From Patescibacteria group bacterium (GTDB lineage Bacteria > Patescibacteriota > Gracilibacteria > Absconditabacterales > Absconditicoccaceae), in NCBI GenBank assembly GCA_022705745.1, contig JAKJDW010000004.1, positions 3,614 through 67,613 on the forward strand: a DNA stretch of 64,000 bases. Reading direction: 5' to 3'. Under the pieces are notes generated by a model. That model was not told the origin of the DNA. It made no database searches and saw nothing but the letters and a program-made list of their open reading frames with translations. The position numbers were made by a program, and so were the translations under genes. Below, one piece after another: positions 1-63,302 of the stretch; within the stretch, counting starts at the first letter, position 1; the number at the start of each line of letters is the position of its first letter.

Positions 1-77
1 ATATCATATTTATCACTTCAAAACAAATTTGCTTGTTCCCTTCTACATAATTTAAACTTTGGTCATGTATACTTCAT
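1..77 (-). CDS. rpsD: 30S ribosomal protein S4, N-terminal fragment (gene runs off the left edge)
   Basis: Minus-strand ATG at 75-77. Code-25 translation MKYTGPKFKLCRREQANLFGSDKYD matches the S4 N-terminus (M.RYtGPk.KLcRReG). It follows rpsK as in the alpha operon. Confidence 0.75.
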
Positions 78-2734: not shown

Positions 2735-3280
2735 TTAAAATTTACTGAATAAAATAATACTATATCATTGTGCCTCTTTTTTTGGTGTAGAATATTGTGT
2801 TTTTCAAGCATCAGATAACTTTTCTACGATTTGGTTTAACATATCTACGGCTTTTGATTCATACATTCTTTCCCTTCACTTCAGTCTTATTGAGAATTTT
2901 ACATTATTTCATTCTAACAAAAATTCTCTTCATTTTTTTATTTTTAATTCTAAGTCGTTATTTCATATAGAGTAGTTGATTTTCAATTCTTTCAAAACTT
3001 TCTGTTTTTGAGTTTTCTTTTTTTCTCTCTCATCTTTTTGTTTTCTATACATATATTTACCATAATCCGTCAATAATGCGGTACAAACCTGTTTTACGGG
3101 GTCATAATGTATTTGAACTAAATCAAGACCTTTTTGTTCTGCCATTTCCAAAGCTACCCTTCTTGGGAAAGATCACAAGTTATTTTTTTTTTCATCCACA
3201 ATAACTATTGTTCAAGCTTTTATAGAACTGTTTACATATACTATTCTTTCTCATTTATGCTCAAAAGGTCTTTCTTGCAT
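2735..3280 (-). CDS. infC: Translation initiation factor IF-3
   Basis: MQERPFEHKGERIVYVNSSIKAGTIVIVDEKKNNLGSFPRRVALEMAEQKGLDLVQIHYDPVKQVCTALLTDYGKYMYRKQKDEREKKK...IRLKGRERMYESKAVDMLNQIVEKL. Classic infC-rpmI-rplT order. Confidence 0.9.
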
Positions 3281-3500: not shown

Positions 3501-3527
3501 TTTCTTCAACTTGTTGGTATGTTATTT

Positions 3528-3601
3528 TATCCCCAGGTGGACTCGAACCACCAACTTACAGCTTAGAAGGCTGTTGCTCTATCCGATTGAACTATGGGGA
3601 C
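3528..3601 (-). tRNA. tRNA-Arg (anticodon TCT)
   Basis: RC GTCCCCATAGTTCAATCGGATAGAGCAACAGCCTTCTAAGCTGTAAGTTGGTGGTTCGAGTCCACCTGGGGATA. Anticodon stem ACAGC/GCTGT, loop CTTCTAA. G1-U72 wobble. Confidence 0.85.
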
Positions 3602-3630
3602 TTGAGACATACCTGGTAAATAATTTAATT

Positions 3631-10483: not shown

Positions 10484-10835
10484 GATGAATACGAACTTCG
10501 TTCGTGATAAGATGATGAAACTTGCCCCGCTTAGCGGAGTGAATGTTAAAGTGATAAAATGATAAAGTGATAAAATGTTAAAATGATAAAATGATAAAGT
10601 GATAAAATGATAAAGTGATAAAATGTTAAAATGATAAAGTGATAAAATGTTAAAATGATAAAATGATAAAGTGATAAAATGTTAAAATGATAAAATGATA
10701 AAGTGATAAAATGTTAAAGTGATAAAACTTGCCCCGCTAAGCGGGGTGAATGTTGAAATGCTAAATGCTTGTCCCGCTTAGCGGGGTGAATGATGAGGTG
10801 ATAAATGCCTGTCAATAAGCAGGGTTCCTTGTTTT
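10484..10835. repeat. Composite cluster R2: three CTTGCCCCGCTTAGCGGGGTGAATG-type hairpins bracketing an 8-nt microsatellite
   Basis: aaacttgccccgcttagcggagtgaatg (about 10518-10545), aaacttgccccgctaagcggggtgaatg (about 10724-10751), atgcttgtcccgcttagcggggtgaatg (about 10766-10793), and gcctgtcaataagcagggt. Confidence 0.9.
10541..10728. repeat. 8-nt tandem repeat (TGATAAAA / TGATAAAG / TGTTAAAA), about 23 units
   Basis: Direct reading: gaatgttaaagtgataaaatgataaagtgataaaatgttaaaatgataaaatgataaagtg... uninterrupted for about 188 nt between two copies of the same GC hairpin. Confidence 0.95.
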
Positions 10836-14735: not shown

Positions 14736-15115
14736 GGTGCTGTTCTTGCAACCCCGCTTGTGGAAATTTTTAAGCTACAGGTAGGAGAAACAGCAAATTG
14801 TCTCCCTTTATCAAAGGGAGCTGGTCTCCCCCGCTGAATAGCGGGGGTAGAGGGATTTATATACAGCTTGTCATTTCGACTAAGTGAACGAAGTGAACAC
14901 ACGGAGACAAAGAAATCCTTCCCTCGGGGGAAGCTGTTCTAATGTAGTTGGGGGTAAAACCCCCACCTAGCTACACAAACAACCTCCCCCAAGGGAGGAA
15001 CTTTTGTCACAACAAACTGTCTCCCTTCATAGAAGGTAGCTGCTCTCCCCGCCCCGCTTAAACAGCGGGGCAGAATTGCGGGGATAGAGGGATTTAACAT
15101 CCTCCCATTTCTTGC
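14736..15115. repeat. Composite cluster R3 of GC-rich palindromic modules
   Basis: ttgtctccctttatcaaagggagctggtct, cccccgctgaatagcggggGTAGagggatttatataca, gtcatttcgactaagtgaacgaagtgaac, cttccctcgggggaagctgttctaatGTAGttgggggtaaaacccccacctagctac, cctcccccaagggagg, ctgtctcccttcatagaaggtagctgctct, ccccgcttaaacagcgggg, cagaattgcgggg. Confidence 0.95.
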
Positions 15116-15173
15116 AATATAAATAAATCTATAGACTTATAAAAAACAAAAAAATCTCCCCAAAGGAAGACTC

Positions 15174-15392
15174 TTATAGGCTATTTCGTTCATCTACTGA
15201 AATTCAGATATATTCAATTATACAATTTACAACTCATCTTGAAATATCTTTTCATCAATGATTTGGGAATGGAACTCTATATCCATCTTTCATCATAAAC
15301 ATATGTTTTCATCACACATAAGGTCATTCAAATCAAAGTTTTCTTAATTTCTTCACCAATTCTCTAGCATTAATAGGTGTAACTTTAGGCAT
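15174..15392 (-). CDS. hicA: Type II toxin HicA (mRNA interferase)
   Basis: MPKVTPINARELVKKLRKLGFEGPYVGGKHMFMMKDGYRVPFPNHGGKDISRGVVNCIIEYIGISVDERNSL matches the HicA pattern (..el.k.L...GF......GSH..f...g..v.vP.H.gkdi..G.l..il...gi). The ATG overlaps the hicB stop (TATGCCTAA). Confidence 0.85.
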
Positions 15393-15624
15393 AACCAAAC
15401 TCTTTATTCATAGTAAAATCCTTTTTTAAGTCTATTTTCCCATTTTTAATATCATCTATCATCAATGTTTCTATTAAATTGATCATATTTCATCTTGCAT
15501 CCTCAAAACTATCTCATTGAGTAAAATATCATGGTTTATTTGGGATTTTTGCAATAACCACTCAATCTTCATCTTTGTAATATACTGTTTGGTCTAATAA
15601 GGAATGAATATAATTTGTGAACAT
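15385..15624 (-). CDS. hicB: Type II antitoxin HicB (UPF0150-like)
   Basis: MFTNYIHSLLDQTVYYKDEDGVVIAKIPNKPGYFTQGDSFEDARGNMINLIETLMIDDIKNGKIDLKKDFTMNKEFGYA. HicB-like block y.a.iP..pG..tQGdt.eEA..n. It lies directly upstream of and overlaps hicA. Confidence 0.8.
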
Positions 15625-15721
15625 TTTCCCATTAGTTACTGGATAAAACTAATCCAATTATAAACATAAAAGCTATTTTTTCAAGCTGAAAATAAATCTT
15701 TGAATCAATGAACAAATTTCA

Positions 15722-16345
15722 GTTGTATTTGTCATTTCGACTAAGTGAACGAAGTGAACGCACGGAGACAAAGAAATCCTTCCCTCGGGGGAAGTTGCTC
15801 TAGTGTAGTTGGGGGTAAAACCCCCACCTAGCTACGCAAACAACCTCCCCCAAGGGAGGAACTTTTGTCACAACAAACTGTCTCCCTTCATAGAAGGTAG
15901 CTGCTCTCCCCCGCTGAATAGCGGGGGTAGAGGGATTTATATACAACTGTCATTTCGACTAAGTGAACGCACAGAGAAATCTCTTTACAAAAAATGTCTC
16001 CCTTTATCAAAGGGAGTTGTTCTAATGCTGCGCCCCGCAGAATTGCGGGGGTAGAGGGATTTATATACAACTGTCATTTCGACTAAGTGAACGAAGTGAA
16101 CGCACGGAGAAATCTCTTTACAAAAAATGTCTCCCTTTATCAAAGGGAGTTGTTCTAATGTAGAGGGATTTATATACAGCTTGTCATTTCGACTAAGTGA
16201 ACGCACGGAAAAATCCACTTTTAACAAACTGTCTCCCTTTCGCGAAACAAAGTGGAGTCCTCTCCCGATATATCGGGATCTCACTTTGTTCGAGATCTAT
16301 CGGGACAAAGGGAGGTGACAATTTTCCCCCACCCTTTTTCCTTTT
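15722..16345. repeat. Composite cluster R4 of GC-rich palindromic modules, including about 125-bp tandem units and a three-level nested hairpin
   Basis: Starts with a 181-bp copy of the R3 segment (15731-15912). Then come repeated units GTAGagggatttatatacaactgtcatttcgactaagtgaacg(aagtgaacg)cacggagaaatctctttacaaaaaatgtctccctttatcaaagggagttgttctaatg. The nested element is at 16229-16316. Confidence 0.95.
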
Positions 16346-16403
16346 CCCACATACCACCAAAATAATACTTTTCAACAGATGGCAGAAAGATCTCCATTTT
16401 TAT

Positions 16404-16431
16404 TTGCAATTTAATTTTTTTTAGTTATAAT
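16404..16431 (+). promoter_or_regulatory. Promoter TTGCAA-16-TATAAT of candidate sRNA copy A
   Basis: TTGCAA at 16404-16409 and TATAAT at 16426-16431, inside a 42-nt block (atctccatttttatttgcaatttaattttttttagttataat) identical to 17103-17143. Confidence 0.55.
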
Positions 16432-16437
16432 CATCTC

Positions 16438-16497
16438 TGTATCAATATAGAGAAGGGATCCGAAAAGTGTTAGTGCTTTAGGTACCTTCTTTTTTTT
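16438..16497 (+). ncRNA. Candidate about 60-nt small RNA (copy A), convergent with the 3' end of NYN gene A
   Basis: Long stem-loop gagaagggatccgaaaag-TGTTAGTG-ctttaggtaccttct followed by T8. The loop and inner stem are conserved with copy B, while the outer stem differs but stays complementary. Confidence 0.45.
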
Positions 16498-16508
16498 GTT
16501 CAGAAATT

Positions 16509-17003
16509 TTAATGAGAAATGTAATGTTTAATATTTATTAAATAATCAAAGTTTTCGTTCATCAAATCATTATATAGTGAAGATGCATATTTTTTGTTTG
16601 GGAATAATATTTTTAGAAATCTTTGTTTTTTGATTAAAAAATCTATGAGTATTTTGAAATCTCAATCTCACGAAACTATTAATATTTTATCAAATTTATC
16701 CGCCTCATCCAATAACTTTGCCATAACATGAAAAATTAAATCACTATCTATATTTCATTTTTTATTGGTCTCCATAAGTAATTGCTGTTTTTTGAAAACC
16801 ACAATAAATCATGCCTCTTGTAATTTAGTATACAATCGATTATTTTCATCTTGCATATAACCTATAAAATAATATGCCTTTTTTATTTTATATTTATCAA
16901 AAAGATAGATTCTCAATTTACTAAAATCTACTGACCATCACTCAGACCTTGTTCATAAATGTAAATTTTGACCATCAATATAAGCGATATTATTCTCTTT
17001 CAT
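16509..17003 (-). CDS. NYN-domain (LabA/DUF88-like, PIN-fold) predicted RNase, paralog A
   Basis: 164 aa: MKENNIAYIDGQNLHLGTRSEGWSVDFSKLRIYLFDKYKIKKAYYFIGYMQDENNRLYTKLQEAGFIVVFKKQ...KKGNIDSDLIFHVMAKLLDEADKFDKILIVSGDGDFKILIDFLIKKQRF. NYN hallmarks IDGQN, KGNID.D, SGDGDF. Confidence 0.85.
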
Positions 17004-17115
17004 CTTTCAAATAAAATATCAAATAAATGTTTCTTTATCTCTACACAAACTCCCAATCCAACGCCCAAACTTCCTGACCGCACCTCACCGACAATACTTT
17101 TATCTCCATTTTTAT

Positions 17116-17143
17116 TTGCAATTTAATTTTTTTTAGTTATAAT
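17116..17143 (+). promoter_or_regulatory. Promoter TTGCAA-16-TATAAT of candidate sRNA copy B
   Basis: TTGCAA at 17116-17121 and TATAAT at 17138-17143, identical to copy A. Confidence 0.55.
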
Positions 17144-17149
17144 GATATT

Positions 17150-17207
17150 GTTATCACGACGAAAGAGATTCCAAAAAGTGTTGGTGCTTTAGGACATCTC
17201 TTTTTTT
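17150..17207 (+). ncRNA. Candidate about 60-nt small RNA (copy B), antisense to the last codons and stop of NYN gene B
   Basis: agagattccaaaaag-TGTTGGTG-ctttaggacatctct followed by T7. The outer stem AGAGAT/ATCTCT replaces GAGAAGG/CCTTCT of copy A. The NYN-B stop codon (17189-17191) lies in the 3' arm. Confidence 0.45.
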
Positions 17208-17710
17208 GTTTGTTTAAAATACTCAATTTTTTTACGAATATCAAATAAACTTAAATTGATACCGTACTGGGGTTTAATGCTTTTATATAAAGATGAATAT
17301 TTATTGTTGGGGAATAAAATATTCTTAAAAATATTCTTTTGAATAAGATATTTTACCATCTTTATGTAATCTCAATCTCATGATACTAATACAATTTTAT
17401 CAAATTTTTTATTTTCAATAATTGTTTTCATGGTCTCAAAAACAATGTCTGTATCGACATTTCACTTTTTCTTTCCTTCTAAAGACTGTGAATGCTCTCT
17501 AAAATATACTATAAATCAAGCTTTTTGCAAACTTTCGTATAAAGTTTGACACTCTTCATTTACATATCATAAAAAATAATATGCCGTTTCTACACAAAAT
17601 TTATCTTTTAAGTATTGCCTAAATCTTTTGTAGTCCATATTCCATCATGCACTTTGTAATCATAAATGTAAATTTTGACCATCAATATAAGCGATATTAT
17701 TCTCTTTCAT
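17189..17710 (-). CDS. NYN-domain predicted RNase, paralog B
   Basis: 173 aa: MKENNIAYIDGQNLHLGLQSAGWNMDYKRFRQYLKDKFCVETAYYFLGYVNEECQTLYESLQKAGFIVYFREH...KKGNVDTDIVFETMKTIIENKKFDKIVLVSGDGDYIKMVKYLIQKNIF.... The first 17 codons and the 5' leader (76 nt) are identical to paralog A. Confidence 0.85.
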
Positions 17711-17742
17711 CTTTCAAATAAAATATCAAATAAATACTTCTT

Positions 17743-18114
17743 TTACTTTATAAATCTAAAATACTCCATCTTTTTATTTCAAAAATTTATAAGCAATCAA
17801 ATTTTAACCTTATATACTTCCAAATAATTTATTAATTGCGCTTTATTTACATCTTCTATTTTTGTGGTTGCCTTTAATTCAACCATAATATCTTCGTCTA
17901 CCAAAAAATCTACCCTTCTATTTCATACATGTGTCCCATCATAATGAATTTGCATATTTTTTTCTCTCTCAAAAGTTAATCCAGCCTTTTGAAACTCTAA
18001 CAATAAGGCCCTTTGATAAACAACTTCTGGGAATCAACATCACAGCTCATTGTGTACCTTCATCGCACAACCTATTATTTTATATGTAATATCTCATTTG
18101 TAAAAATCATTCAT
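17743..18114 (-). CDS. GxxExxY protein (PD-(D/E)xK nuclease superfamily)
   Basis: 123 aa: MNDFYKGDITYKIIGCAMKVHNELGCGFPEVVYQRALLLEFQKAGLTFEREKNMQIHYDGTHVGNRRVDFLVDEDIMVELKATTKIEDVNKAQLINYLEVYKVKIGLLINFGNKKMEYFRFIK. GxxExxY here reads G-F-P-E-V-V-Y. Confidence 0.85.
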
Positions 18115-18204: not shown

Positions 18205-18332
18205 CCACATCCACACCATCTACACCATCTGTGCTCATCTGTGTCATCTGTGCTCATCTGTGTCATCTGTGGTCATCTGTGGTCATCTGTGGTCATCTGT
18301 GGTCATCTGTGGTCATCTGTGGTTATCTGTGG
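18205..18332. repeat. 9-10-nt tandem repeat (CATCTGTGGT and variants), about 12 units
   Basis: ccatctacaccatctgtgctcatctgtgtcatctgtgctcatctgtgtcatctgtggtcatctgtggtcatctgtggtcatctgtggtcatctgtggttatctgtggttatctgg. Confidence 0.95.
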
Positions 18333-18336
18333 TTAT

Positions 18337-18402
18337 CTGGTGGTTTAAAAAAAAACCCCTCTCCTGCTCCCAATCCCGCGAGAACGGGAAAGAGAAAGGA
18401 AA
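18337..18402 (-). terminator. Terminator of the S-layer-like gene, built from a GC hairpin with a nested TCCCGCGAGAACGGGA module
   Basis: Minus strand reads aaaaaaCCCCTttcctttctctt[tcccgttctcgcggga]ttgggagcaggagAGGGGttttttttt. It lies about 60 nt downstream of the stop at 18461. Confidence 0.6.
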
Positions 18403-21394: not shown

Positions 21395-21885
21395 AAACAT
21401 CATCTCAAACTCACCAAACCTAGCCCCCCTTAGCAAGGGGGGTAGGGGGGATCCGTCCACAACCAACTGTCTCCCTTTTTCAAAGGGAGCTGCTCTATTG
21501 TAGTAGTGGGATTTCTCCCCGCATAGCCCCCTTCGAACGAAGTGAAGCCCCGATTTATCGGGGAGCAAGGGGGGTAGGGGGGATCCGTCCACAACCAACT
21601 GTCTCCCTTTTTCAAAGGGAGCTGCTCTATTGTAGTGGGATTTCTCCCCACCTAGCCCCCTTCGAACGAAGTGAAGCCCCGATTTATCGGGGAGCAAGGG
21701 GGGAAGGGGGGATCCGTCCACAACCAACTGTCTCCCTTTTTCAAAGGGAGCTGCTCTATTGTAGTGGGATTTCTCCCCTTTTTCAAATTAACCATCTCCC
21801 TCATTAAATGAGAACTAGCTAAAGAAATCCTTCCCTTGGGGGAAGTTGTTCTATCGTAGTTGGGGGTAAGTATCCCCGGTTTCAA
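21395..21885. repeat. Composite cluster R6: about three tandem copies of a ~130-bp unit of GC-rich modules plus extra modules, just upstream of the S-layer-like gene
   Basis: Unit starts at 21433, 21565 and 21694 (periods 132 and 129 nt): gcaaggggggtaggggggatccgtccacaaccaactgtctccctttttcaaagggagctgctctattGTAGtgggatttctcccc.cctagcccccttcgaacgaagtgaagccccgatttatcgggga. Ends with cttcccttgggggaagttgttctatcGTAGttgggggtaag. Confidence 0.95.
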
Positions 21886-24660: not shown

Positions 24661-25590
24661 TTACTTAATGAACTTACTCACCTTGTCCGAACTAGAGAGA
24701 GAAACAAACTCTTTCTCAAAAACCTTTAATGGGTACAAAAAGTGCAATCTAGACCCAATCCCCGCATCACAAGACTGAAACAATTTCAAAGTATCCAACA
24801 AAGAATGCTTCGTCCAATCATAAACCACTAAATCTGGAATAACTTTTCTCAAGCCAGAATAGAATCCCTTATCAAAACTAATGTCTGCAGGGAAAAATAT
24901 TTTTTTATGATCTGGATATTTCAAAACAAATTTCTTTATTTTTTCAATATTATCATCTGTGAAATGCTTCGGAGAAATGTTGATCAAAACCGTGGAGGAC
25001 AAAGAAACTGGATTCTTGTTTTTGAAATCTTCTAAAATATCTTTAGAAAAATCCTGATACAAAACCGCTGATTTCGCTCAATACTGAACCGCTCTTTCAT
25101 AGGATATTTTTTCTCTACAAATAACCCTTTTTGTTTTCTTGAACATATATTTGAACAATTTTTTTGTATATTTTTTTTGATCCGTACCAATTCATCACAC
25201 TAAAATAAAATTCTTTTTCCTAATGTCATGGCGATACAATATTTTCAAATTCCATCAATCGTGTGGGAACTTTCTAGACTCATCTAAAACTTCTCATCAC
25301 CCAAAAACTTTGAAATATTTTCTATATTTATCCAATCAAAGAAATATCTGTAATTGGCGAAACCTCCTGCTAATCACCGCATTTTCTACGAAATCTAGTT
25401 TATCTAAAATTCATGGTTCTAGCCAGGTTTTGTTGTGTTGTATCCGGGTCTGTATCCGTTGCAAATCTCAAACCTCTACGGTAAAAGATTCTGGATTGTA
25501 TTCTCTTTGCAAATAATTTAACAGACCAAAAAATAGCATTTCATCTCCAAAATTTCTATAGCCATAAAATCATTTGATATAAAGTTTCAT
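24661..25590 (-). CDS. Polysaccharide pyruvyl transferase family protein (CsaB-like)
   Basis: 309 aa: MKLYIKGFYGYRNFGDEMLFFGLLNYLQREYNPESFTVEVGD...FKVFGGGEVLDESRKFPHDGWN...FILVGGIGTDQKK...CDAGIGSRLHFLYPLKVF. The opening block GyyG..N.GDe.l resembles CsaB. Confidence 0.65.
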
Positions 25591-25682
25591 ATGAATGAAT
25601 TAAGGTTAAAGATTCTAATTCCTTGATAAGGTATATAAACAATGGGGAATATGGATTTGGGCTTCAGGTGGAAGGAATAACA

Positions 25683-25822
25683 AGCTGTCTCCCTTTTGCA
25701 AAGGGGGCTGCTCTAATGTAGAGGGATTTAATATTCTCTCCACTTTTGCAGCCCCAGCCCGTAGCCCCGCAGTATTGCGGGGCGGGGCGGGGCGGGGTCA
25801 AACAGTACCCGGGTGGTAGGGC
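25683..25822. repeat. Composite cluster R10
   Basis: agctgtctcccttttgcaaagggggctgctctaatGTAGagggatttaat, cccGTAGccccgcagtattgcggggcggggcggggcgggg, gtacccgggtggtaggg. Confidence 0.9.
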
Positions 25823-34720: not shown

Positions 34721-35446
34721 TTAAGCTTTTATAGATTCATAAAAATTTTGGGCAGCATCTTCTTGTGCTTTTTTCTTATTAGTACCAAATCATTCTGCTT
34801 TTTTGACTCATAGGACATATATTTCCGCCTTGTAAGTTAAAACATTTCATTTAGAATCAATCTCATGCTCAATATCTTTGTAAGATGGTAATTCTTTGTA
34901 TAGTTTTTGAAGGTGCTCTTGTACCATAGTTTTGTAACTTTGTATGGGTTTTTTGCTTATTTTGTTATACATTGTATATACATTTTTTTCTACAAAAACT
35001 TCTGCTTGAGCGTAACCAAAGTCCAAAAACACGAATCATATCAAAGCCTCCAAAGCGTCTGCCAAAATAGCATCTTTTTTTCTTCATTGCGTTTTTTCTT
35101 CTCATCTACTCACAAGAATATGTTTGTCTAAATTAATATTTCTAGCAACCTGTGCCAAGTTTCCTTCTCTAACTAATGCTATCTTATATAAAGTCATCTC
35201 AGATTCGTCCATCTTGGGATGTTTTTGGAATAACAATTTACATACAATCGCTCACAAAACTCAATCTCACACAAATTCTAATCTTTCATTATGTCATAAT
35301 ATTTTTTTGAAATCAGCAGCAAAAGATTTATGCACGAAAGCTTGTAATAATAAACCTTCGTTTTTTATTTTTGATGGATCCAATCATAGTTCTTTTATGT
35401 ACGAATATATTTTTTCTTTTTGTTCTAGTACTTTTTTATTAAGCAT
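34721..35446 (-). CDS. rnc: Ribonuclease III
   Basis: 241 aa: ...LLLQAFVHKSFAADFKKILGHNERLEFVGDGVLGAIVCKLLFQKHPKMDESEMTLYKIALVREGNLAQVARNINLDKHILVSRGEEKTQGRKKDAILADALEALIGFVFLD...KTMVQEHLQK. Signature ERLEFVGD. Confidence 0.9.
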
Positions 35447-38215: not shown

Positions 38216-38665
38216 TTGCCTCCCTTCAAAGAAGGGAGCTGCTCTAATGCTATGCACCGCTTGCCCCGCTTAAACAGCGGGGCAGAATTGCGGGGCTACA
38301 ATTTATGGGGATTTAGGCCACAAATAGAAAAAACAAAAAATTGTCTCCCTTTTGCGAAACGAAGTGGAGTCCTCTCCCGACACATCGGGATCTCACTTTG
38401 TTCGAGATCTATCGGGACAAAGGGAGCTGTTCTTCCGCATCTCTTGCAGCCCCGCAGAATTGCGGGGCTACAATTTGTTGGAATTTAAGCCATAAGTAGG
38501 AGAAACAGCAAACTGTCTCCCTTTCGCAAAGGGAGCTGTTCTTTTAGAGGGATTTAGTGTATTCCACCACACAGAATTGCTTGACTCAAGAAAGAGAATT
38601 ATCCCTGTTTCTACTAGTCATGTCCTTCGCCCTCCCGTAGTACTACGGGAGGGCTCGAGGACGAC
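38216..38665. repeat. Composite cluster R13, including a second copy of the three-level nested hairpin (38341-38427)
   Basis: ttgcctcccttcaaagaagggagctgctctaatg, ccccgcttaaacagcgggg, cagaattgcggggCTAC, ttgtctcccttttgcgaaacgaagtggagtcctc[tcccgacacatcggga]tctcactttgttcgagatctatcgggacaaagggagctgttct, ccccgcagaattgcggggCTAC, GTAGgagaaacagcaaactgtctccctttcgcaaagggagctgttct, cctcccGTAGtactacgggagg. Confidence 0.95.
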
Positions 38666-39533: not shown

Positions 39534-39722
39534 GCAAAGTTTGTAAAGTTGAAAGTTTATAAAGTTGCAAGTTAAAAGTTTGTAAAGTTAAAAGTTGAAA
39601 GTTTATCAAGCTGCAAGTTATAAGTTTGTAAAGTTAAAAGTTGAAAGTTTATCAAGCTGCAAGTTATAAGGCGCTTATGAACTTTACAAACTTTATGAAC
39701 TTTACAAACTTAAACGACTATT
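39534..39722. repeat. AT-rich word-repeat cluster with a 58-bp direct duplication and inverted GTTTGTAAAGTT / AACTTTACAAAC arms
   Basis: gcaaagtttgtaaagttgaaagtttataaagttgcaagttaaa[agtttgtaaagttaaaagttgaaagtttatcaagctgcaagttata]x2 aggcgcttatgaactttacaaactttatgaactttacaaactt. Confidence 0.9.
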
Positions 39723-57088: not shown

Positions 57089-57407
57089 AGCGTATTGAAA
57101 TTGTATAAAGTATGAAATGTATAACCTTTTAGAAAAAAACTGCAATGTTTTTTAAAATAATAAAAAATTCGTTTAAAAAGTTTTACTTTTTAAGCAAACT
57201 ATGTTTTTAAAAGTTTATTGAATGGGTTATTTTATAAAAAAAGTATAGGATAATTTTTAATTTATGTATATAAACTTGGATAAATATAAATAAGTCAAAC
57301 CATTTAGCAGGCAAAAAGGTAAAAAAACTTGAAAAATAAAAAAAAATTATTATTATAGCACCGATATAGTTTTGGTGCTACTTTTTATTTTTTAACCAAT
57401 ATCAAAC

Positions 57408-57893
57408 ATGTTCAAAGGGAAAGTTTATGTTTACAAAAACATTAATTGAAAAGAGGAGAAAATTGAAAGAGAATTTGATAATTCTCAAGATTTCCAATCA
57501 TTTGTTCAAAACAATGAGGTTTCATGATTAGAAAGTTTTTCTGACACGCCAAGATCTCCAATATTGTGACTGTGAGATTGGGCAAATTTACAGAATTATT
57601 TTGATAATCTCATTGATAGAAGACTGTGACTAATCTATGATTGATACGATGAAGAGCAAGACAATTATGCTGGGTGAAATCTGATTGATCTCAATAAATA
57701 TGAATCAGAATTAAAAAAAATTGACTATCAAAAGCAACACAAAGATGAAACATTAAAACATCTCAAATCAACTCTTCAAAAGCTCAAAGATTACAAGAAA
57801 AAATTCAAAAATGAGTGAAGAGAAGATATGATCGAAAGTATTGATTTGGATATTAAAAAGATTGAAAATGAGATATCTAAATTTGATAAATAA
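57408..57893 (+). CDS. Hypothetical protein (161 aa)
   Basis: MFKGKVYVYKNINGKEEKIEREFDNSQDFQSFVQNNEVSGLESFSDTPRSPILGLGDWANLQNYFDNLIDRRLGLIYDGYDEEQDNYAGGNLIDLNKYESELKKIDYQKQHKDETLKHLK.... A clean terminator follows. Confidence 0.55.
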
Positions 57894-57906
57894 TGTTTTT
57901 GTTTGC

Positions 57907-57932
57907 GAGCTAGATTAATCTAGCTCTTTTTT
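57907..57932 (+). terminator. Rho-independent terminator
   Basis: GAGCTAGA-ttaa-TCTAGCTC followed by TTTTTT. Confidence 0.75.
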
Positions 57933-57951
57933 AAATGGTAAAAAAGAGAAA

Positions 57952-58557
57952 ATGAAAAAATCAGAAAAAACTTTGAAAAGCACGGTCAAGAATTGTGATA
58001 ATTCTATTAAGAGAAACTTTGCAAAAGTTAATAAGTATCTTTGAGTTAGTTGATGGATAATTGTGATATTTGTTGTCTTTATCATTTCTCTTGTTATTTA
58101 TTATCAAAACAGGATAGCCAACATAGAATCTCGTGGAATTATTTACTATCAAGATCCTTATAGAATCGATCGTACTTTAAATGTTTTTGATGAGTTTGAT
58201 AGATATTTTGATAGACAGGACAAATACTTCAAAAATCTTTTTAGAGAACAAGAGGAATTTATTAGAAGATATGGAAAAAATTTTGATTTAGACAAAGCGA
58301 GAATGGTAGATATGTCTGATAAATCTCAACAAAAATATCAAAAGTATTATTTACAAAATTGAAAAGTTTATTCTTATGAGATAAATTACAACAATTGAGT
58401 GGTAAATTGAAATATTGTGGTAGATGATATTGAACAAAGAGATGTATTGATCCAAAGATTACAAAAATTGTGACTTGAATTGTCAAATTCAGATTTAAAT
58501 ATTATGTTTTCTTGAGAACTTGATAATATAAATTCTTTGATAAGCATATTGGATTAG
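57952..58557 (+). CDS. Membrane-anchored hypothetical protein (201 aa)
   Basis: MKKSEKTLKSTVKNCDNSIKRNFAKVNKYLGVSGWIIVIFVVFIISLVIYYQNRIANIESRGIIYYQDPYRIDRTLNVFDEFDRYFDRQDKYFKNLFREQEEFIRRYG.... In frame with track ORF 58063-58362. Confidence 0.55.
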
Positions 58558-58671
58558 GGACTATTTTGCCTAGAAAAATTATTAGTGTTTGTATAAATAA
58601 ATTGATTTTATTTGAAATGAGTAAAGTAGGAGCTTTGTTATGATATAAGAAATTCAAAAAATTAGTTTTTA

Positions 58672-58926
58672 TTATTTTTTGTTCCTGCTGTTTTCAATTT
58701 GTTCTCATAAATATTCAAAACGAGGTTTTGTGATTCCATCTATAATTACATCTTCAAAAAACATTTTTTTTGGTCTGACTCGTAATTGAGATTTTCATTC
58801 TGTATCGTTGTAAAGAGCTTTATACAACACCAACTCTTCTCAACTTTCACTATGTACTACAATATCAATTAATTCGTACAAGTTGCCTTTATAGTGTTTG
58901 TATATTCATTTTTTAATAGAGTTCAT
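58672..58926 (-). CDS. DUF1653-like protein
   Basis: 84 aa: MNSIKKGIYKHYKGNLYELIDIVVHSESGEELVLYKALYNDTEGKSQLRVRPKKMFFEDVIIDGITKPRFEYLGEQIENSRNKK. DUF1653 pattern Y.HYKG..Y.........hsE..e..VvY.aLY.......vRP..mF. Confidence 0.7.
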
Positions 58927-58942
58927 CTTTTAGAACTAATTA

Positions 58943-59659
58943 TTAAATAAAAAATTTTGTCCAGTAGTCCAACCAGAGAATGGAATCTAAATGTAGTGGT
59001 GGAATATTGTGTTTTTTTGATAAGGTTTGAAAATAATTTTGAATTTCTGTATTGCTAACCTTATTTTTTATATCTAAAGAATTAGTATAAATTCTTTTAA
59101 TCCTGCTATCAACTGGTATTTCTATACTCATTGGATATATAGTTTCTTTTCAAGAAATGATTTCATGGGCATATCCAAACATTTTAACGGCAAAAACATT
59201 CGTTTTGCTGTCTTTTTTTGTGTTCATTACCTTGGAAATAAGATCATTCAATTCTTCTAATTTGTTTCAAAAATTTAGGAAAATTATATTTTTTTGTAAA
59301 ATTTTGTTGAATTTTTTAATTTTATTAGTTTTGATATTATAGATCCTTTTGTTGTATTTAGAATTGGTCAGAAAATCATATCGCCAAACACTATTATCTT
59401 GTTTTTTTTGTCGTAATTCTTGTAATGTTTTTCGATCTTTTTGAATTTTATCTCCAAATTCTTGTCGTCGCAATTCTCATGTTCAGGCGATTTGGTAGCT
59501 TACTAGAGCACATTGTAGAGTTAAATATAAAAACAAATTTTCATCTTTATTTTGTATTTTCCTCCAGCTTTCTTTTAGTGCTAAAAACTGTGGATCCTTT
59601 TGTTCCAGTTTTTTAATTTTTTGGATATTGTATTTTGATATGAAGTTTTCTATTTTCAT
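58943..59659 (-). CDS. N-glycosylase/DNA lyase, AGOG-type 8-oxoguanine DNA glycosylase family
   Basis: 238 aa: ...FLYLTLQCALVSYQIAGTGELRRQEFGDKI...SKTNVFAVKMFGYAHEIISGKETIYPMSIEIPVDSRIKRIYTNS...KHNIPPLHLDSILWLDYW resembles the AGOG pattern (LvSYQl.g.GE..W..F; K..vFavKMfgYa; iPvD.Ri; ppLHlDs.lW). Confidence 0.7.
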
Positions 59660-60075
59660 TTAGTTTTTTTCAATTGATCTCTGATGTCTATGAGCACATC
59701 TAATTCTGATATTTTTGGCTCTTCTACTTTTTTTTCTGATTTTTTGAGTTTGTTGATACCTTTTACTACAAAAAATAATGTAACGCTTACCATAAGAAAC
59801 GCTAATATTGCGTTGATAAATAGTCCGTAAGCTAATACAGAAGCTCAAGCTTCACGAGCTAATGCTACACTAGAAAAAGTTTCTCCACTGGGATTTGATA
59901 AAACTACAAATAGATTTGAAAAATCTGGTATTTTGAATATCCCAGATATAACTGGCATAATTATATCATCTACTAGAGATTTTACTATAGTAGAAAATGC
60001 TGCTCAAATCATAATTCATATAGCCATGTCTATCATGTTTCACTTTATGGCAAATTCTTTGAATTCTTTAATCAT
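59650..60075 (-). CDS. mscL: Large-conductance mechanosensitive channel
   Basis: 141 aa: [59 protein letters not shown]...VLAYGLFINAILAFLMVSVTLFFVVKGINKLKK.... It ends ...KKTK-TGA-AAA-TAG, overlapping the ATG of the next gene. Confidence 0.9.
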
Positions 60076-60165
60076 TTTTTATTGTATTTAAATAAAACAG
60101 TTATTTTTTTAGTTAAAAATCTAAAGTTTTCAAGGATATTTTTCATTAGTTTATCAATTTTTTGA

Positions 60166-60545
60166 ATCCCCTTTTTAAGGGGTTACTCTATCGTAGTTGG
60201 GGGTTGTAGTTGGGGATTGTCAGGAATTACTGGGAAGAAAAACCCCCACCTACCCCGCAGTATTGCGGGGGAGAACAACCTCCCCCAAGGGAGGAACTTT
60301 TGTCACAACATTATTGCCTCCCTTTGAAAAAGGGAGTTGGTCTTCCCGATTTATCGGGATAGAGGGATTTATTTACATCCCCCTTGACTACGGAGTTCTC
60401 CGTAACGAGCAAGGGAGATGCTTATTAGCTTTTAATAAATCCCCCTTAATCCCCCTTATTAAGGGGGATGTTTGTTAGCTTTTAATAAACCCCTTAACTA
60501 CGAAATTCTTCGTAGCGAATAAGGGAGAGGTAGGAGACTTTCCTC
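60166..60545. repeat. Composite cluster R15
   Basis: tccccttttTaaggggttactctatcGTAGttggggg[ttgtagttggggattgtcaggaattactgggaagaaaa]acccccacctac, cccgcagtattgcggg, cctcccccaagggagg, ttgcctccctttgaaaaagggagttggtct, tcccgatttatcgggaTAGagggattta, tcccccttattaaggggga, ctacggagttctccgtaac, ctacgaaattcttcgtag. Confidence 0.95.
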
Positions 60546-60656
60546 ATTGTGGACTGTGTCAGTTTTTTTGTCTATATTTGTCTACTTGCTATTGAAAAAC
60601 AAAAAGAATATTTTATTATTCGTTTTGAAGTTTTATTTTTTTTATATAAAGAAATT

Positions 60657-63302
60657 ATGGGATTATTTTGAACTAAAACCAAAAAATTTGTTTATTCTTT
60701 CAATGAATCTAAAGGAGTAGACAAATACATTATTGGAGGAAAGTGAGCTAATTTAGCAGAAATGATGTCTTTGGGGCTACCTATTCCTGATGGGTTTACT
60801 GTAAGTACAGAGGCTTGTGAGTTTTATTATAAGAATAATAAAACCAATAGTCAGGAAGTATTGGAGCAGATAGAAGCTAAATTACAAAAACTTGAAAAAA
60901 CTATGGGTAAAAAATTATGAGATTCACAAGACCCATTGTTGGTTTCTGTTAGATCTGGGGCAGCTGTTTCTATGCCTGGTATGATGGACACAGTATTAAA
61001 TCTATGACTAAATGATGAATCTGTGATTTGATTAGCCAACAGGACTTGAAATGAAAGATTCGCTTGGGATAGTTATAGAAGATTTATTCAGATGTTTGGA
61101 GATGTTGTAATGTGAGTAGAACATCATCATTTTGAAGAACAACTACACAAGGTTAAGACAGAAAAATGAATAAAAGATGACACAGATTTAACCGTTGAAG
61201 ATTTACAAAAGGTAGTTTCTTTGTACAAAGATATGATACAAAGAGATACTTGAAAAATGTTTCCAAATGATGGTAGAGAACAGTTAAAAATGGCCATAAA
61301 TGCTGTATTTGATTCTTGGAACAATGATAGAGCTATTGTTTATAGGAAATTAAACAATATTAAATGACTTATATGAACTGCTGTGAATGTTCAATCAATG
61401 GTTTTTGGGAATATGGGTGAAACTTCATGAACAGGAGTATGTTTTACAAGAAATCCTTCTACTGGAGAAAATAAATTTTATGGAGAATTTTTGATGAATG
61501 CTCAGGGAGAAGATGTGGTAGCATGAATTAGAACTCCTGAACATATTGAGGAACTAGAAAAAGTTATGCCAGAATGTTATAAAGAGCTTGTAGATATTTA
61601 TCATTTGCTTGAAAAACACTACAAAGATATGCAAGATTTGGAATTTACTATCCAAGAATGAAAACTTTATATTCTTCAAACAAGAAGTGGAAAGAGGACA
61701 GCTGTTGCTGCAGTAAAAATGGCTGTAGATATGGTTGATGAATGATTGATAGATGAAAAAACAGCTATTCTTAGAATCAATCCAGAACAGCTTGATGCTT
61801 TACTTCACAAACAAATAGAAGCTTCTGCAAAGCATTCAGCAGAGCTATTGACAAAAGGTCTTCCTGCTTCTCCTGGAGCTGGTGTATGACAAATTGTGTT
61901 TACAGCAGAAGATGCTCATGAATGGGCTCAAGAAGGTAAAAAATTAATTTTAGTTAGAAATGAGACATCTCCAGAAGATATTCAATGAATGCATGCTTCT
62001 CAATGAGTTTTGACTGCTAGATGAGGTATGACTTCACATGCTGCAGTAGTAGCTAGATGAATGTGAAAATGTTGTGTTGCTGGAGCTAGTGAGATTGTAA
62101 TAGATGAAAAATCTAAAACACTTACAATAGGTTCAAAAACATTTAGAGAATGAGATGTTTTGACATTAGATGGTTCAACTGGAGAAGTTTTTGCATGAGA
62201 ACTAAAAACAGTAGATCCAGAACTAAGTTGAGATTTTGCTACATTAATGCAATGGGCAGATAAATATAGAAGATTGGGAATCAGAACAAATGCTGATACT
62301 CCAGCAGATGCTTTGATGGCTAAAAAATTTGGAGCAGAAGGTATATGACTTTGTAGAACAGAACATATGTTCTTTGCTGATGATAGAATTAAAGCTGTTA
62401 GAGAGATGATTTTATCTGACAATTTGGATGATAGAAAAAAGGCTCTTGCTAAACTTCTTCCATATCAAAAAGAAGACTTTGTTGGGTTATTCAATGCTAT
62501 GGAATGACTTCCTGTTACAATTAGATTTTTGGATCCTCCATTACATGAGTTCTTACCAACAGAAGAACATGACATTGTAGAATTAGCTAAAGAAATGAAT
62601 GTAGAACTTTCTGTACTAAAAGATAGAATAGCTTCACTTCATGAAATTAATCCTATGTTGTGACATAGATGATGTAGATTGGTTATTACTTTCCCTGAGA
62701 TAGCAGAAATGCAGACTGAGGCTGTGATTTCAGCGGCTTGTGAACTAGCTAAAGCAGGAAAGCAAGTAATGCCTGAGATTATGATTCCATTAGTATGATT
62801 CAAACAAGAGTTAGATTTCAATTTAGAAATTGTACACAGAGTTGCAAAAAGTACTATGGAAAAATATGGAGTTGAAGTAAATTATACAGTTGGAACAATG
62901 ATAGAAGTTCCTAGATGAGCTTTGACTGCTGATAAGGTTGCTGAATCTGCTGAATTCTTTTCTTTTGGAACAAATGATCTTACTCAGATGGGATTAGGTT
63001 TCTCTAGAGATGATGCTGGTAAATTCATCAAAGAATATGTAAATCAAAGTATTTTTGATAAAGATCCTTTCCAAACCTTAGATCAGGAATGAGTAGGACA
63101 ATTAGTAGAAATAGCAGTAGAAAAATGAAAATCTACTAGACCAAATATCAAGTTAGGAATTTGTGGTGAACATGGATGAGATCCTGCTTCTATTGAATTC
63201 TGTCATAGAGTTGGACTTACTTATGTTTCTTGTTCTCCGTATAGAGTTCCTATTGCGAGATTAGCTGCAGCTCATGTTGCTTGTAATATATCCAAAAATT
63301 AG
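60657..63302 (+). CDS. ppdK: Pyruvate, phosphate dikinase
   Basis: 881 aa: [54 protein letters not shown]...[27 protein letters not shown]...[20 protein letters not shown]...[24 protein letters not shown] (phospho-His loop) ...[12 protein letters not shown]...[11 protein letters not shown]...[11 protein letters not shown]. Confidence 0.95.

Follow-up and report, generated by a model that had tools for sequence, protein, structure and literature searches.

The locus described here raises the question of what a small RNA gene is doing at the end of a nuclease gene. In the window, by which we mean the whole stretch of 64,000 nucleotides analysed (positions 3,614 to 67,613 of contig JAKJDW010000004.1, Patescibacteria assembly GCA_022705745.1), two adjoining units of ~710 bp each carry a gene for an NYN-domain protein on the minus strand and, convergent to it on the plus strand, a ~58-nt hairpin that is preceded by a promoter and followed by a T-run. 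A first inspection of the letters alone (the sequence-only reading) had described these units as a tandemly duplicated module and had likened them to type I toxin–antitoxin loci, in which an antisense RNA overlaps the 3′ end of the toxin mRNA. The observation of a tandem module composed of an NYN gene and a small RNA (sRNA) gene is real and was confirmed. Beyond the window, the comparative data make a statistically robust case for a predicted conserved sRNA family that occurs across Patescibacteria and is tied to a family of NYN nucleases.

Direct repeats with a spacing of 707-712 bp extend across positions 16390-17750, and ~62% of the columns in a pairwise alignment of unit 1 and unit 2 are identical, which bears out the tandem duplication. 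The 42-nt block containing the putative promoter (TTGCAA and TATAAT separated by 16 nt) is indeed identical in both units, and the ~58-nt sRNA stretch begins 7 nt past each −10 hexamer. A 33-nt promoter block and a 20-nt core are each found exactly twice in the window, where 0 occurrences would be expected by chance. Across the window a covariance model of the element, built from 60 copies, gave two matches only, both beside NYN genes, namely at 16435-16504 for sRNA1 (58.8 bits, E 3.8e-10) and at 17147-17215 for sRNA2 (60.3 bits, E 1.7e-10). The hairpins of sRNA1 and sRNA2 are predicted to fold with −14.3 kcal/mol (z −2.0) and −15.6 kcal/mol (z −2.6) on the plus strand and more weakly, with −9.0 and −12.2 kcal/mol, on the minus strand, in line with the plus-strand stem–loop and T-run originally proposed for each unit. 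In neither unit could we find a plus-strand open reading frame (ORF) using the promoter or the terminator, and the earlier statement that no plus-strand protein gene is served by them stands.

We then have to ask whether this RNA gene is generally associated with NYN genes. Two samples were compared, 80 genome loci fetched via the NYN protein and 80 metagenome loci fetched via the RNA core pattern alone. In the protein-led sample the RNA was present at the 3′ end of the NYN gene in 80 of 80 loci; 53 copies were recognised by a strict regular expression, 25 more by the covariance model and the remaining two, the variants L059 and L091, by inspection. Starting from the RNA, 66 of the 80 loci had a convergent NYN gene within 120 nt, five copies were situated at contig ends and nine were without NYN. 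Two of these nine look like chance or degenerate matches, and about seven (L103, L104, L123, L129, L138, L158 and L175) have an intact hairpin and U-run, together with an intact promoter where the contig reaches that far (in L104 the contig breaks off where the motif begins), and no NYN gene in the available flanks. In L016 an intact RNA (1671-1739) stands beside a truncated NYN gene (1345-1698, 117 aa). Across Patescibacteria, linkage between the RNA gene and NYN holds, in either orientation, for essentially all loci examined. The co-occurrence with NYN genes that was to be looked for in related genomes was found, and the stem–loop is tied to NYN, not scattered downstream of unrelated genes.

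No other gene shows such a linkage. An all-against-all clustering of the flanking ORFs revealed no recurring neighbour family among the 80 loci, and 130 neighbours fell into 125 Pfam families, many of them being housekeeping genes. We therefore rejected the idea of a conserved protein partner or operon.

At the first distant loci the element lies on the opposite strand at the NYN 3′ end and consists of −35 and −10 hexamers, a tail GTATCAATACGAAA, a variable basal stem, a conserved core (CCGAAAGG-TGTTAGTG-CCTAAGG) and a T-run. An alignment of 60 distinct copies (A4, whose columns number the pairs unless stated otherwise) gave the consensus GUAUCAAUACGAAA for the single-stranded 5′ tail, which is conserved, not variable. 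A CC/GG clamp flanks the internal loop (GAAA/UAA), which is rich in purines, and at the apex a GG/CC stem carries a loop of the UGUUAGUG type. The internal loop is GAAA or GAAC opposite UAA or UUA, and an A·G mismatch is conserved at 25/51. Standard pairing is found in 86.9% of the cells, and covarying pairs include 22-54 (GC 30, AU 21), 26-50 (UA 30, CG 11, AU 5), 33-44 (GC 51, AU 9) and 17-59 (GC 40, GU 12, AU 4). The CC/GG clamp, otherwise invariant, is changed to UC/GA or UU/AA in Saccharibacteria variants. The observed covariation score was reached by 0 of 500 column shuffles, and every control in which the 3′ partner had been slid scored lower on all measures. When mutual information with average-product correction was calculated for 144 distinct copies, the top pairs were all nested hairpin pairs and there was no covariation signal for further structure or a second partner. 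The conserved apical part and the compensatory changes in the basal stem, first seen between the two copies of the window, are thus extended over 60-144 homologues.

Two other structural ideas were dropped. A pseudoknot joining the apical loop to the 5′ tail was considered, GUAUCAAUAC and GUGUUAGUGC differing by transitions alone, and was rejected, as only nested hairpin pairs emerge from the mutual information. A likeness to a kink-turn, to loop E or to the 11-nt GAAA receptor (CCUAAG) was noted on visual inspection alone; it is not borne out by the opposite strand, and we do not claim it.

The pairing of an NYN gene with an sRNA had been proposed as new, and this view is upheld as far as Rfam 15 and the literature searched are concerned. 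Searching the window against Rfam 15 at the gathering threshold returned tRNAs only. At the element nothing credible appeared with E up to 5, the sole overlap being a long non-coding RNA family with 16 bits (gathering cut-off 50) and E 1.2, and ten consensus-like loci gave no match at the element with E up to 1. In the literature searched we found no description of an NYN-associated small RNA.

Is the hairpin part of a transcript of its own? It could instead be the terminator or a 3′ untranslated region (UTR) element of the NYN mRNA, for instance for self-recognition in the manner of Regnase-1, and the hexamers could be fortuitous AT-rich sequence. The hairpin folds on the NYN strand too, with the energies given above, and is followed there by UUUU-CGU; G·U and A·C are balanced in the basal stem, and at columns 28-42 of the 144-copy mutual information alignment an alternation of A-U and C·A corresponds to A-U and U·G on the NYN strand. 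Against this stands the promoter, which is kept in position and sequence even in GC-rich genomes. TTGACA-16..18-TATAAT is matched at ≥10 of 12 positions in 34 of 62 distinct copies (55%) versus 2.9% of random 90-mers from the same loci, and in 50 of the 62 copies the −10 hexamer ends 23-28 nt ahead of the core. Since the position of the promoter is conserved, we infer that transcription starts at the G of GTAT. Moreover, in the copies of the 60-sequence alignment the hairpin is followed by C-UUUU on the same strand, a canonical U-run for the sRNA, and promoter, hairpin and U-run are retained in the copies without NYN and invert together in the co-directional loci described below. Finally, the 85 cells with U·G and G·U at the loop-adjacent columns 35-42 and 36-41 can form pairs on the sRNA strand only. 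With −35 and −10 hexamers at a fixed distance and a same-strand hairpin and U-run, all conserved among the homologues, the element has the hallmarks of an independent sRNA gene running from promoter to terminator, as the sequence-only reading had it, and we consider it very improbable that the hairpin belongs to the NYN mRNA only. A strand call from the total of G·U versus A·C (113 versus 29) would favour the sRNA strand as well, but 85 of these cells come from the two loop-adjacent positions and the count was not taken as decisive alone.

Given a separate RNA, the simplest function would be the one suggested by the geometry, that is, a type I toxin–antitoxin system in which the RNA is only a cis-antisense RNA that pairs with the NYN mRNA at its 3′ end and causes its decay or an expression block with no recognition by the protein. 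The genes are convergent and overlapping in the window and at most loci, the hairpin in most cases contains the NYN stop codon, and, being shared, it could terminate transcription in both directions. Hairpins that act as bidirectional terminators are a feature of txpA/RatA and of the pAD1 par (Fst) locus. As judged by eye, a YUNR-type sequence is present in many of the loop variants, and the window has an ORF at 34721-35446 whose translation looks RNase III-like. The sRNA of unit 2 covers the 3′ UTR and the final 19 nt of coding sequence of NYN2, whose stop codon is inside the conserved CTTTAGG of the hairpin. NYN1, however, has acquired an earlier stop, 11 nt past the T-run of sRNA1, and sRNA1 does not overlap the NYN1 coding sequence; it overlaps the NYN1 3′ UTR only, and only if the mRNA reaches that far. 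The statement that each NYN gene ends at or inside the stem–loop is therefore correct for NYN2, whereas NYN1 ends only near it.

A different orientation was found in three lineages of animal-gut Saccharibacteria (L085/L224-226, L227-229 and L230-231). Here the RNA gene is on the same strand as the NYN gene and immediately downstream of it, no second NYN gene is nearby, and the NYN proteins share 72-75% identity with the one encoded in L085. These co-directional RNA genes have their own promoter and their own U-run; in L227 and L230 the −35 hexamer shares nucleotides with the NYN stop codon, and in L085 it is situated a few nucleotides downstream of the stop. The complementarity between RNA and mRNA is no better than in shuffled controls (z −0.6 to −1.1). 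In L091, L067, L066 and L051 nearly the same RNA subtype is convergent, and in L085, L227 and L230 promoter, hairpin and U-run are inverted as a whole. Because a near-identical RNA subtype is both co-directional and convergent, we conclude that promoter, hairpin and terminator move as one unit and that the linkage with NYN outlives the antisense overlap.

These co-directional, non-complementary RNAs do not fit a role as antisense RNA only, nor do the ~7 copies without NYN, which retain promoter and terminator, or sRNA1 with its lack of coding overlap. Antisense pairing would also not need a core, an internal loop and an A·G mismatch that are conserved across phyla, and the toxin would be a soluble enzyme of 164-173 aa, not a small membrane peptide. 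Additional complementarity to the NYN 5′ region was absent, cognate and non-cognate scores being the same. A 9-nt match of sRNA1 to the AYIDG codons had been a candidate for trans pairing with this region and was discarded as chance (−11.9 kcal/mol for cognate vs −11.5 kcal/mol for non-cognate combinations, the cognate one being better in 50% of loci). The type I interpretation of the sequence-only reading agrees with the convergent geometry of the window, including the overlap of sRNA2 with the NYN2 stop, and as a full explanation it seems to us quite unlikely. Taking together the inversion, the NYN-less copies, the cross-phylum core, the missing protein neighbour and the missing complementarity to the NYN 5′ region, we reason that the RNA would be a structure-specific partner of the NYN protein, not an antisense RNA only.

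What kind of protein would this partner be? Translated with table 11, the minus strand at 16500-17700 contains no long ORF, and the ORF content of the whole window is 3,338 codons compared with 22,715 when TGA is read as sense. In the alignment 12 of the 12 in-frame TGA codons of NYN1 and NYN2 correspond to glycine in code-11 homologues, and they sit in the motifs LHLG, KKGN and SGDGD. Because of this coincidence the genetic code deduced for the window is code 25 with TGA as glycine, and on the strength of that code the source organism is to be placed as a Gracilibacteria- or Absconditabacteria-type member of Patescibacteria.

NYN1 and NYN2 are 49% identical to each other and match the Pfam family PF01936 with 51.1 bits (E 2.6e-13) and 61.5 bits (E 1.7e-16), well above the gathering cut-off of 24.2 bits. 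In comparisons of 17 and of 32 homologues the acidic residues D10, D86, D88, D112 and D114, which belong to the motifs IDGQN, NVDxD and SGDGD, show no variation; the window uses TGA codons for the glycines of these motifs. An AlphaFold2 model was made of the protein P0001, which is 96% identical to NYN2. This model (pLDDT 85.8) has the NYN/PIN-like alpha-beta-alpha fold, and its best matches are 2qip (E 6.5e-9, TM 0.69-0.73) and the NYN domain of MARF1 (5yaa/6fdl). By profile match, invariant PIN-like acidic residues and predicted fold the two proteins are bona fide members of the NYN (PF01936) family. A bacterial NYN protein has been described as a non-specific, Mn-dependent single-strand ribonuclease (RNase) in vitro (bioRxiv 10.1101/2024.04.08.588522), and from their family membership the NYN proteins of the window are probably active RNases. 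NYN2 has more than 4,500 homologues, many of which are 55-65% identical and come from Gracilibacteria, Absconditabacteria, Peregrinibacteria, Saccharibacteria, Paceibacteria and others. PADLOC reported only a weak NYN/LabA match.

We propose that the locus is a self-contained two-gene module in which the RNA would be the dedicated partner of the NYN protein, most likely its inhibitor, possibly with an added antisense layer, and we would give this explanation a probability of roughly 0.55. One gene would encode a compact single-domain NYN (PIN-like) endoribonuclease and the other a dedicated structured RNA of ~58 nt with its own sigma-70-type promoter and its own hairpin/U-run terminator. The NYN protein would recognise the RNA via the conserved hairpin core, and the RNA could act as an antitoxin-like inhibitor or a pseudo-substrate that keeps a potentially non-specific RNase under control, much as type III toxin–antitoxin systems do. 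In the convergent geometry of the window and of most loci the RNA would in addition be a perfect complement of the 3′-terminal part of the NYN mRNA, in the case of NYN2 with its stop codon, and an antisense layer may be superimposed that acts by forming a duplex, by inviting cleavage by RNase III or by removing the stop codon. In the window this module would have been duplicated in tandem, with its regulatory ends kept identical by gene conversion. An inhibitory, antitoxin-like role appears to be the most economical reading, because the NYN proteins keep the active-site acids, because the predicted fold fits and because a bacterial NYN protein is a non-specific single-strand RNase. The variable genomic context, the occurrence of divergent paralogous pairs within one genome, the tandem duplication, the degraded NYN gene next to an intact RNA, the RNA copies devoid of NYN and the mobile-element, toxin–antitoxin or restriction-modification genes beside some loci are patterns like those of toxin–antitoxin or accessory genes.

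Several points weigh against this proposal. Inhibition, activation or a cofactor function, and processing of the RNA by NYN would look alike computationally. The co-directional architecture was seen in only three related lineages of Saccharibacteria, and neither the mutual information nor the shuffle controls correct for phylogeny. In the basal stem G·U pairs (28) and A·C pairs (24) are balanced, from which it follows that the hairpin would fold about equally well in the NYN mRNA. A protein identity of 55-65% across classes is unusually high for a toxin. By tblastn the NYN family had no match in PLSDB plasmids or GenBank phages, and since only 6 of 2.9 million IMG/VR contigs match, a plasmid or phage origin was rejected. 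The high conservation of NYN and the absence from plasmids and phages somewhat disfavour a classical toxin.

Some of these points would suit an RNA that is a cofactor or a substrate, i.e. either an RNA that forms a ribonucleoprotein with the NYN protein and activates, targets or scaffolds it, or an RNA with another role that is matured by NYN. The evidence from linkage, conservation and orientation-independence applies to such a module in the same way, and high protein conservation, a spread over the whole superphylum and many housekeeping neighbours would suit a stable cellular function; the NYN-less copies suggest that the RNA is valuable alone. A programmable guide is at odds with the conserved 5′ tail, and there is no covariation for further structure or a second partner. 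Several divergent pairs per genome, the tandem duplication, the variable context and the degraded NYN gene fit an accessory or toxin–antitoxin function better, and we regard a cofactor or substrate role as unlikely, albeit worth keeping in mind, next to the inhibitor model.

How does the proposed RNA-inhibited nuclease module relate to known systems? In function the closest analogue is a type III toxin–antitoxin system and in geometry a type I system with convergent transcripts and a shared terminator, and the module is a member of neither. With the type III systems (ToxIN, CptIN, TenpIN, AbiQ/antiQ) it shares an endoribonuclease gene tightly linked to a gene for a small structured RNA, the lack of a protein antitoxin, a terminator hairpin between the genes or at their junction, the accessory character of loci with variable context and, as proposed here, RNA recognition by structure and not by pairing with an mRNA. 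It is not type III because the nuclease fold, the architecture of the RNA and the gene order differ: the nuclease has the NYN (PIN-like) fold and not that of ToxN, AbiQ or CptN, the RNA consists of one hairpin under a promoter of its own and not of an upstream tandem-repeat array processed by the toxin, and it is encoded downstream of the nuclease, usually convergently; the conserved structure and the orientation-independent linkage give an indirect hint that the RNA may bind and inhibit the protein. No upstream repeat array was found, and the only exceptions to the single hairpin are L012, where one RNA (3505-3605, minus strand) has two tandem hairpin motifs ahead of the U-run, and L090, where two complete RNA genes (2977-3142, minus strand) follow a single NYN gene in tandem. 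Both arrangements are faintly reminiscent of type III antitoxin repeat arrays.

The type I systems with 3′ overlap (txpA/RatA, bsrG/SR4, par/Fst RNA I-RNA II) likewise have convergent transcription, overlapping 3′ ends, a shared hairpin and an RNA of ~60 nt with its own promoter. The module does not belong to type I because size and nature of the protein differ, a soluble RNase of 164-173 aa instead of a small hydrophobic peptide (typically <60 aa), and because one clade does without complementarity; conservation of the RNA sequence extends across phyla, and an inversion that abolishes the complementarity leaves the linkage intact. A nuclease toxin under sRNA control has precedents in SymE/SymR and RalR/RalA, but their folds are different (SymE is AbrB-like, RalR is a DNase), the antisense RNA acts at the 5′ end or in the coding region, and they are enterobacterial and without homology to the module. 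With other NYN proteins (LabA, MARF1, VPA0982/2qip and the CRISPR-associated NYN of Bacteroides fragilis, a non-specific Mn-dependent single-strand RNase) the proteins of the window agree in profile, invariant acidic residues and predicted fold. For none of these known proteins was a dedicated sRNA gene reported in the literature searched, and the family of the window is a minimal stand-alone domain. Regnase-1 (ZC3H12A) is also a PIN-like/NYN-like RNase and its own mRNA has a conserved 3′ stem–loop for autoregulation; it is, however, eukaryotic and of a different family, whereas the element described here has its own promoter, is encoded on the opposite strand and can be inverted.

The positions of the elements in the window are collected in Table 1.

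Table 1. Positions of the NYN genes, the sRNA genes and neighbouring elements in the window
Feature	Position	Strand	Description
42-nt block, unit 1 (sRNA1 promoter)	16390-16431	+	−35 TTGCAA 16404-16409, 16-nt spacer, −10 TATAAT 16426-16431
sRNA1, ~59 nt	16439-16497	+	5′ tail GTATCAATATA, hairpin 16449-16492, then 8 T; predicted ends
NYN1	16509-17003	−	164 aa, code 25; stop 16509-16511; C-terminally truncated relative to the family
76-nt identical block	16953-17028 = 17660-17735	−	25 nt of NYN 5′ leader plus 51 nt coding (17 codons)
C-rich spacer, unit 2	17040-17101	+	between NYN1 start and sRNA2 promoter; unit 1 counterpart 16330-16389
42-nt block, unit 2 (sRNA2 promoter)	17102-17143	+	−35 TTGCAA 17116-17121, 16-nt spacer, −10 TATAAT 17138-17143
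sRNA2, ~58 nt	17150-17207	+	5′ tail GTTATCACGACGAAA, hairpin 17157-17208, then 7 T; predicted ends
NYN2	17189-17710	−	173 aa, code 25; stop 17189-17191
PDDEXK_3 (GxxExxY) nuclease-superfamily ORF	17743-18114	−	32 nt upstream of NYN2, same strand

The two units also share an identical block at the start of the NYN genes. This block is real; the 76 nt are, however, its total length and not, as had been stated, a leader of 76 nt to which 17 codons are to be added. Among related strains, L005 has a T-to-G change within the 42-nt block of each copy, L004 has it in copy 1 alone and L001 lacks it altogether. Because the change occurs in none, one or both copies, ongoing gene conversion between the copies is likely to keep the regulatory ends identical, in agreement with what had been suspected from the two copies of the window. 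The C-rich leader reported for each unit exists in the window as well: the plus strand of the spacers is 31-43% C and 6-7% G, the genome having a GC content of ~29%. The other loci compared do not share this spacer, which is specific to this organism and lies outside the conserved module, and we therefore do not count it as a part of the module or a feature of the family.

Upstream of the PDDEXK_3 ORF there is a promoter-like TTGCAA-16-TATATT at 18173-18146, which suggests that PDDEXK_3, NYN2 and NYN1 may share one transcript starting from this site. The PDDEXK_3 neighbour is not conserved at the other loci and is present in this organism only. Between the promoter-like site and the 3′ end of a minus-strand ORF of 952 aa, at 18226-18344, we observed 12 tandem copies of the 10-nt repeat CATCTGTGGT.

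Other repeats were seen elsewhere in the window. Repeat-rich intergenic stretches at 14790-16300, 21432-21778, ~25556-25801, 38216-38488 and 60197-60478 are composed of units of ~110-133 nt with GC-rich hairpins (CTCCCTTTATCAAAGGGAG, CCCCGCTGAATAGCGGGG), one of them being a tandem array of 129 nt x 2.7. They have no match in Rfam and may be REP- or MITE-like. AT-rich intergenic arrays of short tandem repeats are located at 10542-10813 and 39536-39711, with periods of 16 and 24 nt of the AATGATAA type and periods of 7, 16, 23 and 46 nt of the AAAGTTG type.

As to the genomic surroundings of the module at other loci, some copies adjoin genes of mobile elements, toxin–antitoxin or restriction-modification systems, and AbiEii is found in L011. 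An association with defence islands is weak and not general, being limited to a few loci with type I restriction-modification, PbeA, DRT, AbiEii or an OLD-family nuclease, and was set aside as an explanation. A full module (RNA 76.6 bits) is present in L025, which is from the cultured Bacteroidota isolate Parasediminibacterium sp. JCM 36343 (NZ_JBKHKJ010000018.1, module within 57167-62658). It has a large serine recombinase on one side and an OLD-family ATPase/TOPRIM nuclease on the other, which suggests horizontal transfer of the module on a mobile or defence island.

A more far-reaching proposal, which we put forward tentatively and hold to be possible but rather doubtful in its entirety, would be that the modules constitute a new class of RNA-partnered RNases across the Patescibacteria superphylum with occasional transfer to Bacteroidota, in which the RNA would bind NYN either as a type III-like antitoxin or as a switch releasing the enzyme upon stress or phage infection, with antisense control as an additional layer. 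If the RNA is an inhibitor, the module would be the first system of toxin–antitoxin type with an NYN toxin in the literature searched and the RNA a new family of RNA antitoxins; if it is a cofactor, the module would be a new minimal ribonucleoprotein. Since cultured Parasediminibacterium sp. JCM 36343 carries the module, its function is directly testable. The finding also bears on the NYN family, as the solved structure of the stand-alone bacterial NYN protein VPA0982 (2qip) is still labelled "unknown function".

For annotators, the covariance model provides a new RNA family that is missed by current pipelines, and the locus illustrates how code-25 genomes hide genes from scans with the standard code. 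Patescibacteria, the candidate phyla radiation of ultra-small and mostly uncultured organisms, make up a large share of bacterial diversity, and for TM7x, their best-studied cultured member, a transcriptome paper of 2022 states that small RNAs had yet to be validated. A structured RNA with a promoter, a terminator and a fixed protein partner therefore offers an entry point to RNA regulation in Patescibacteria.

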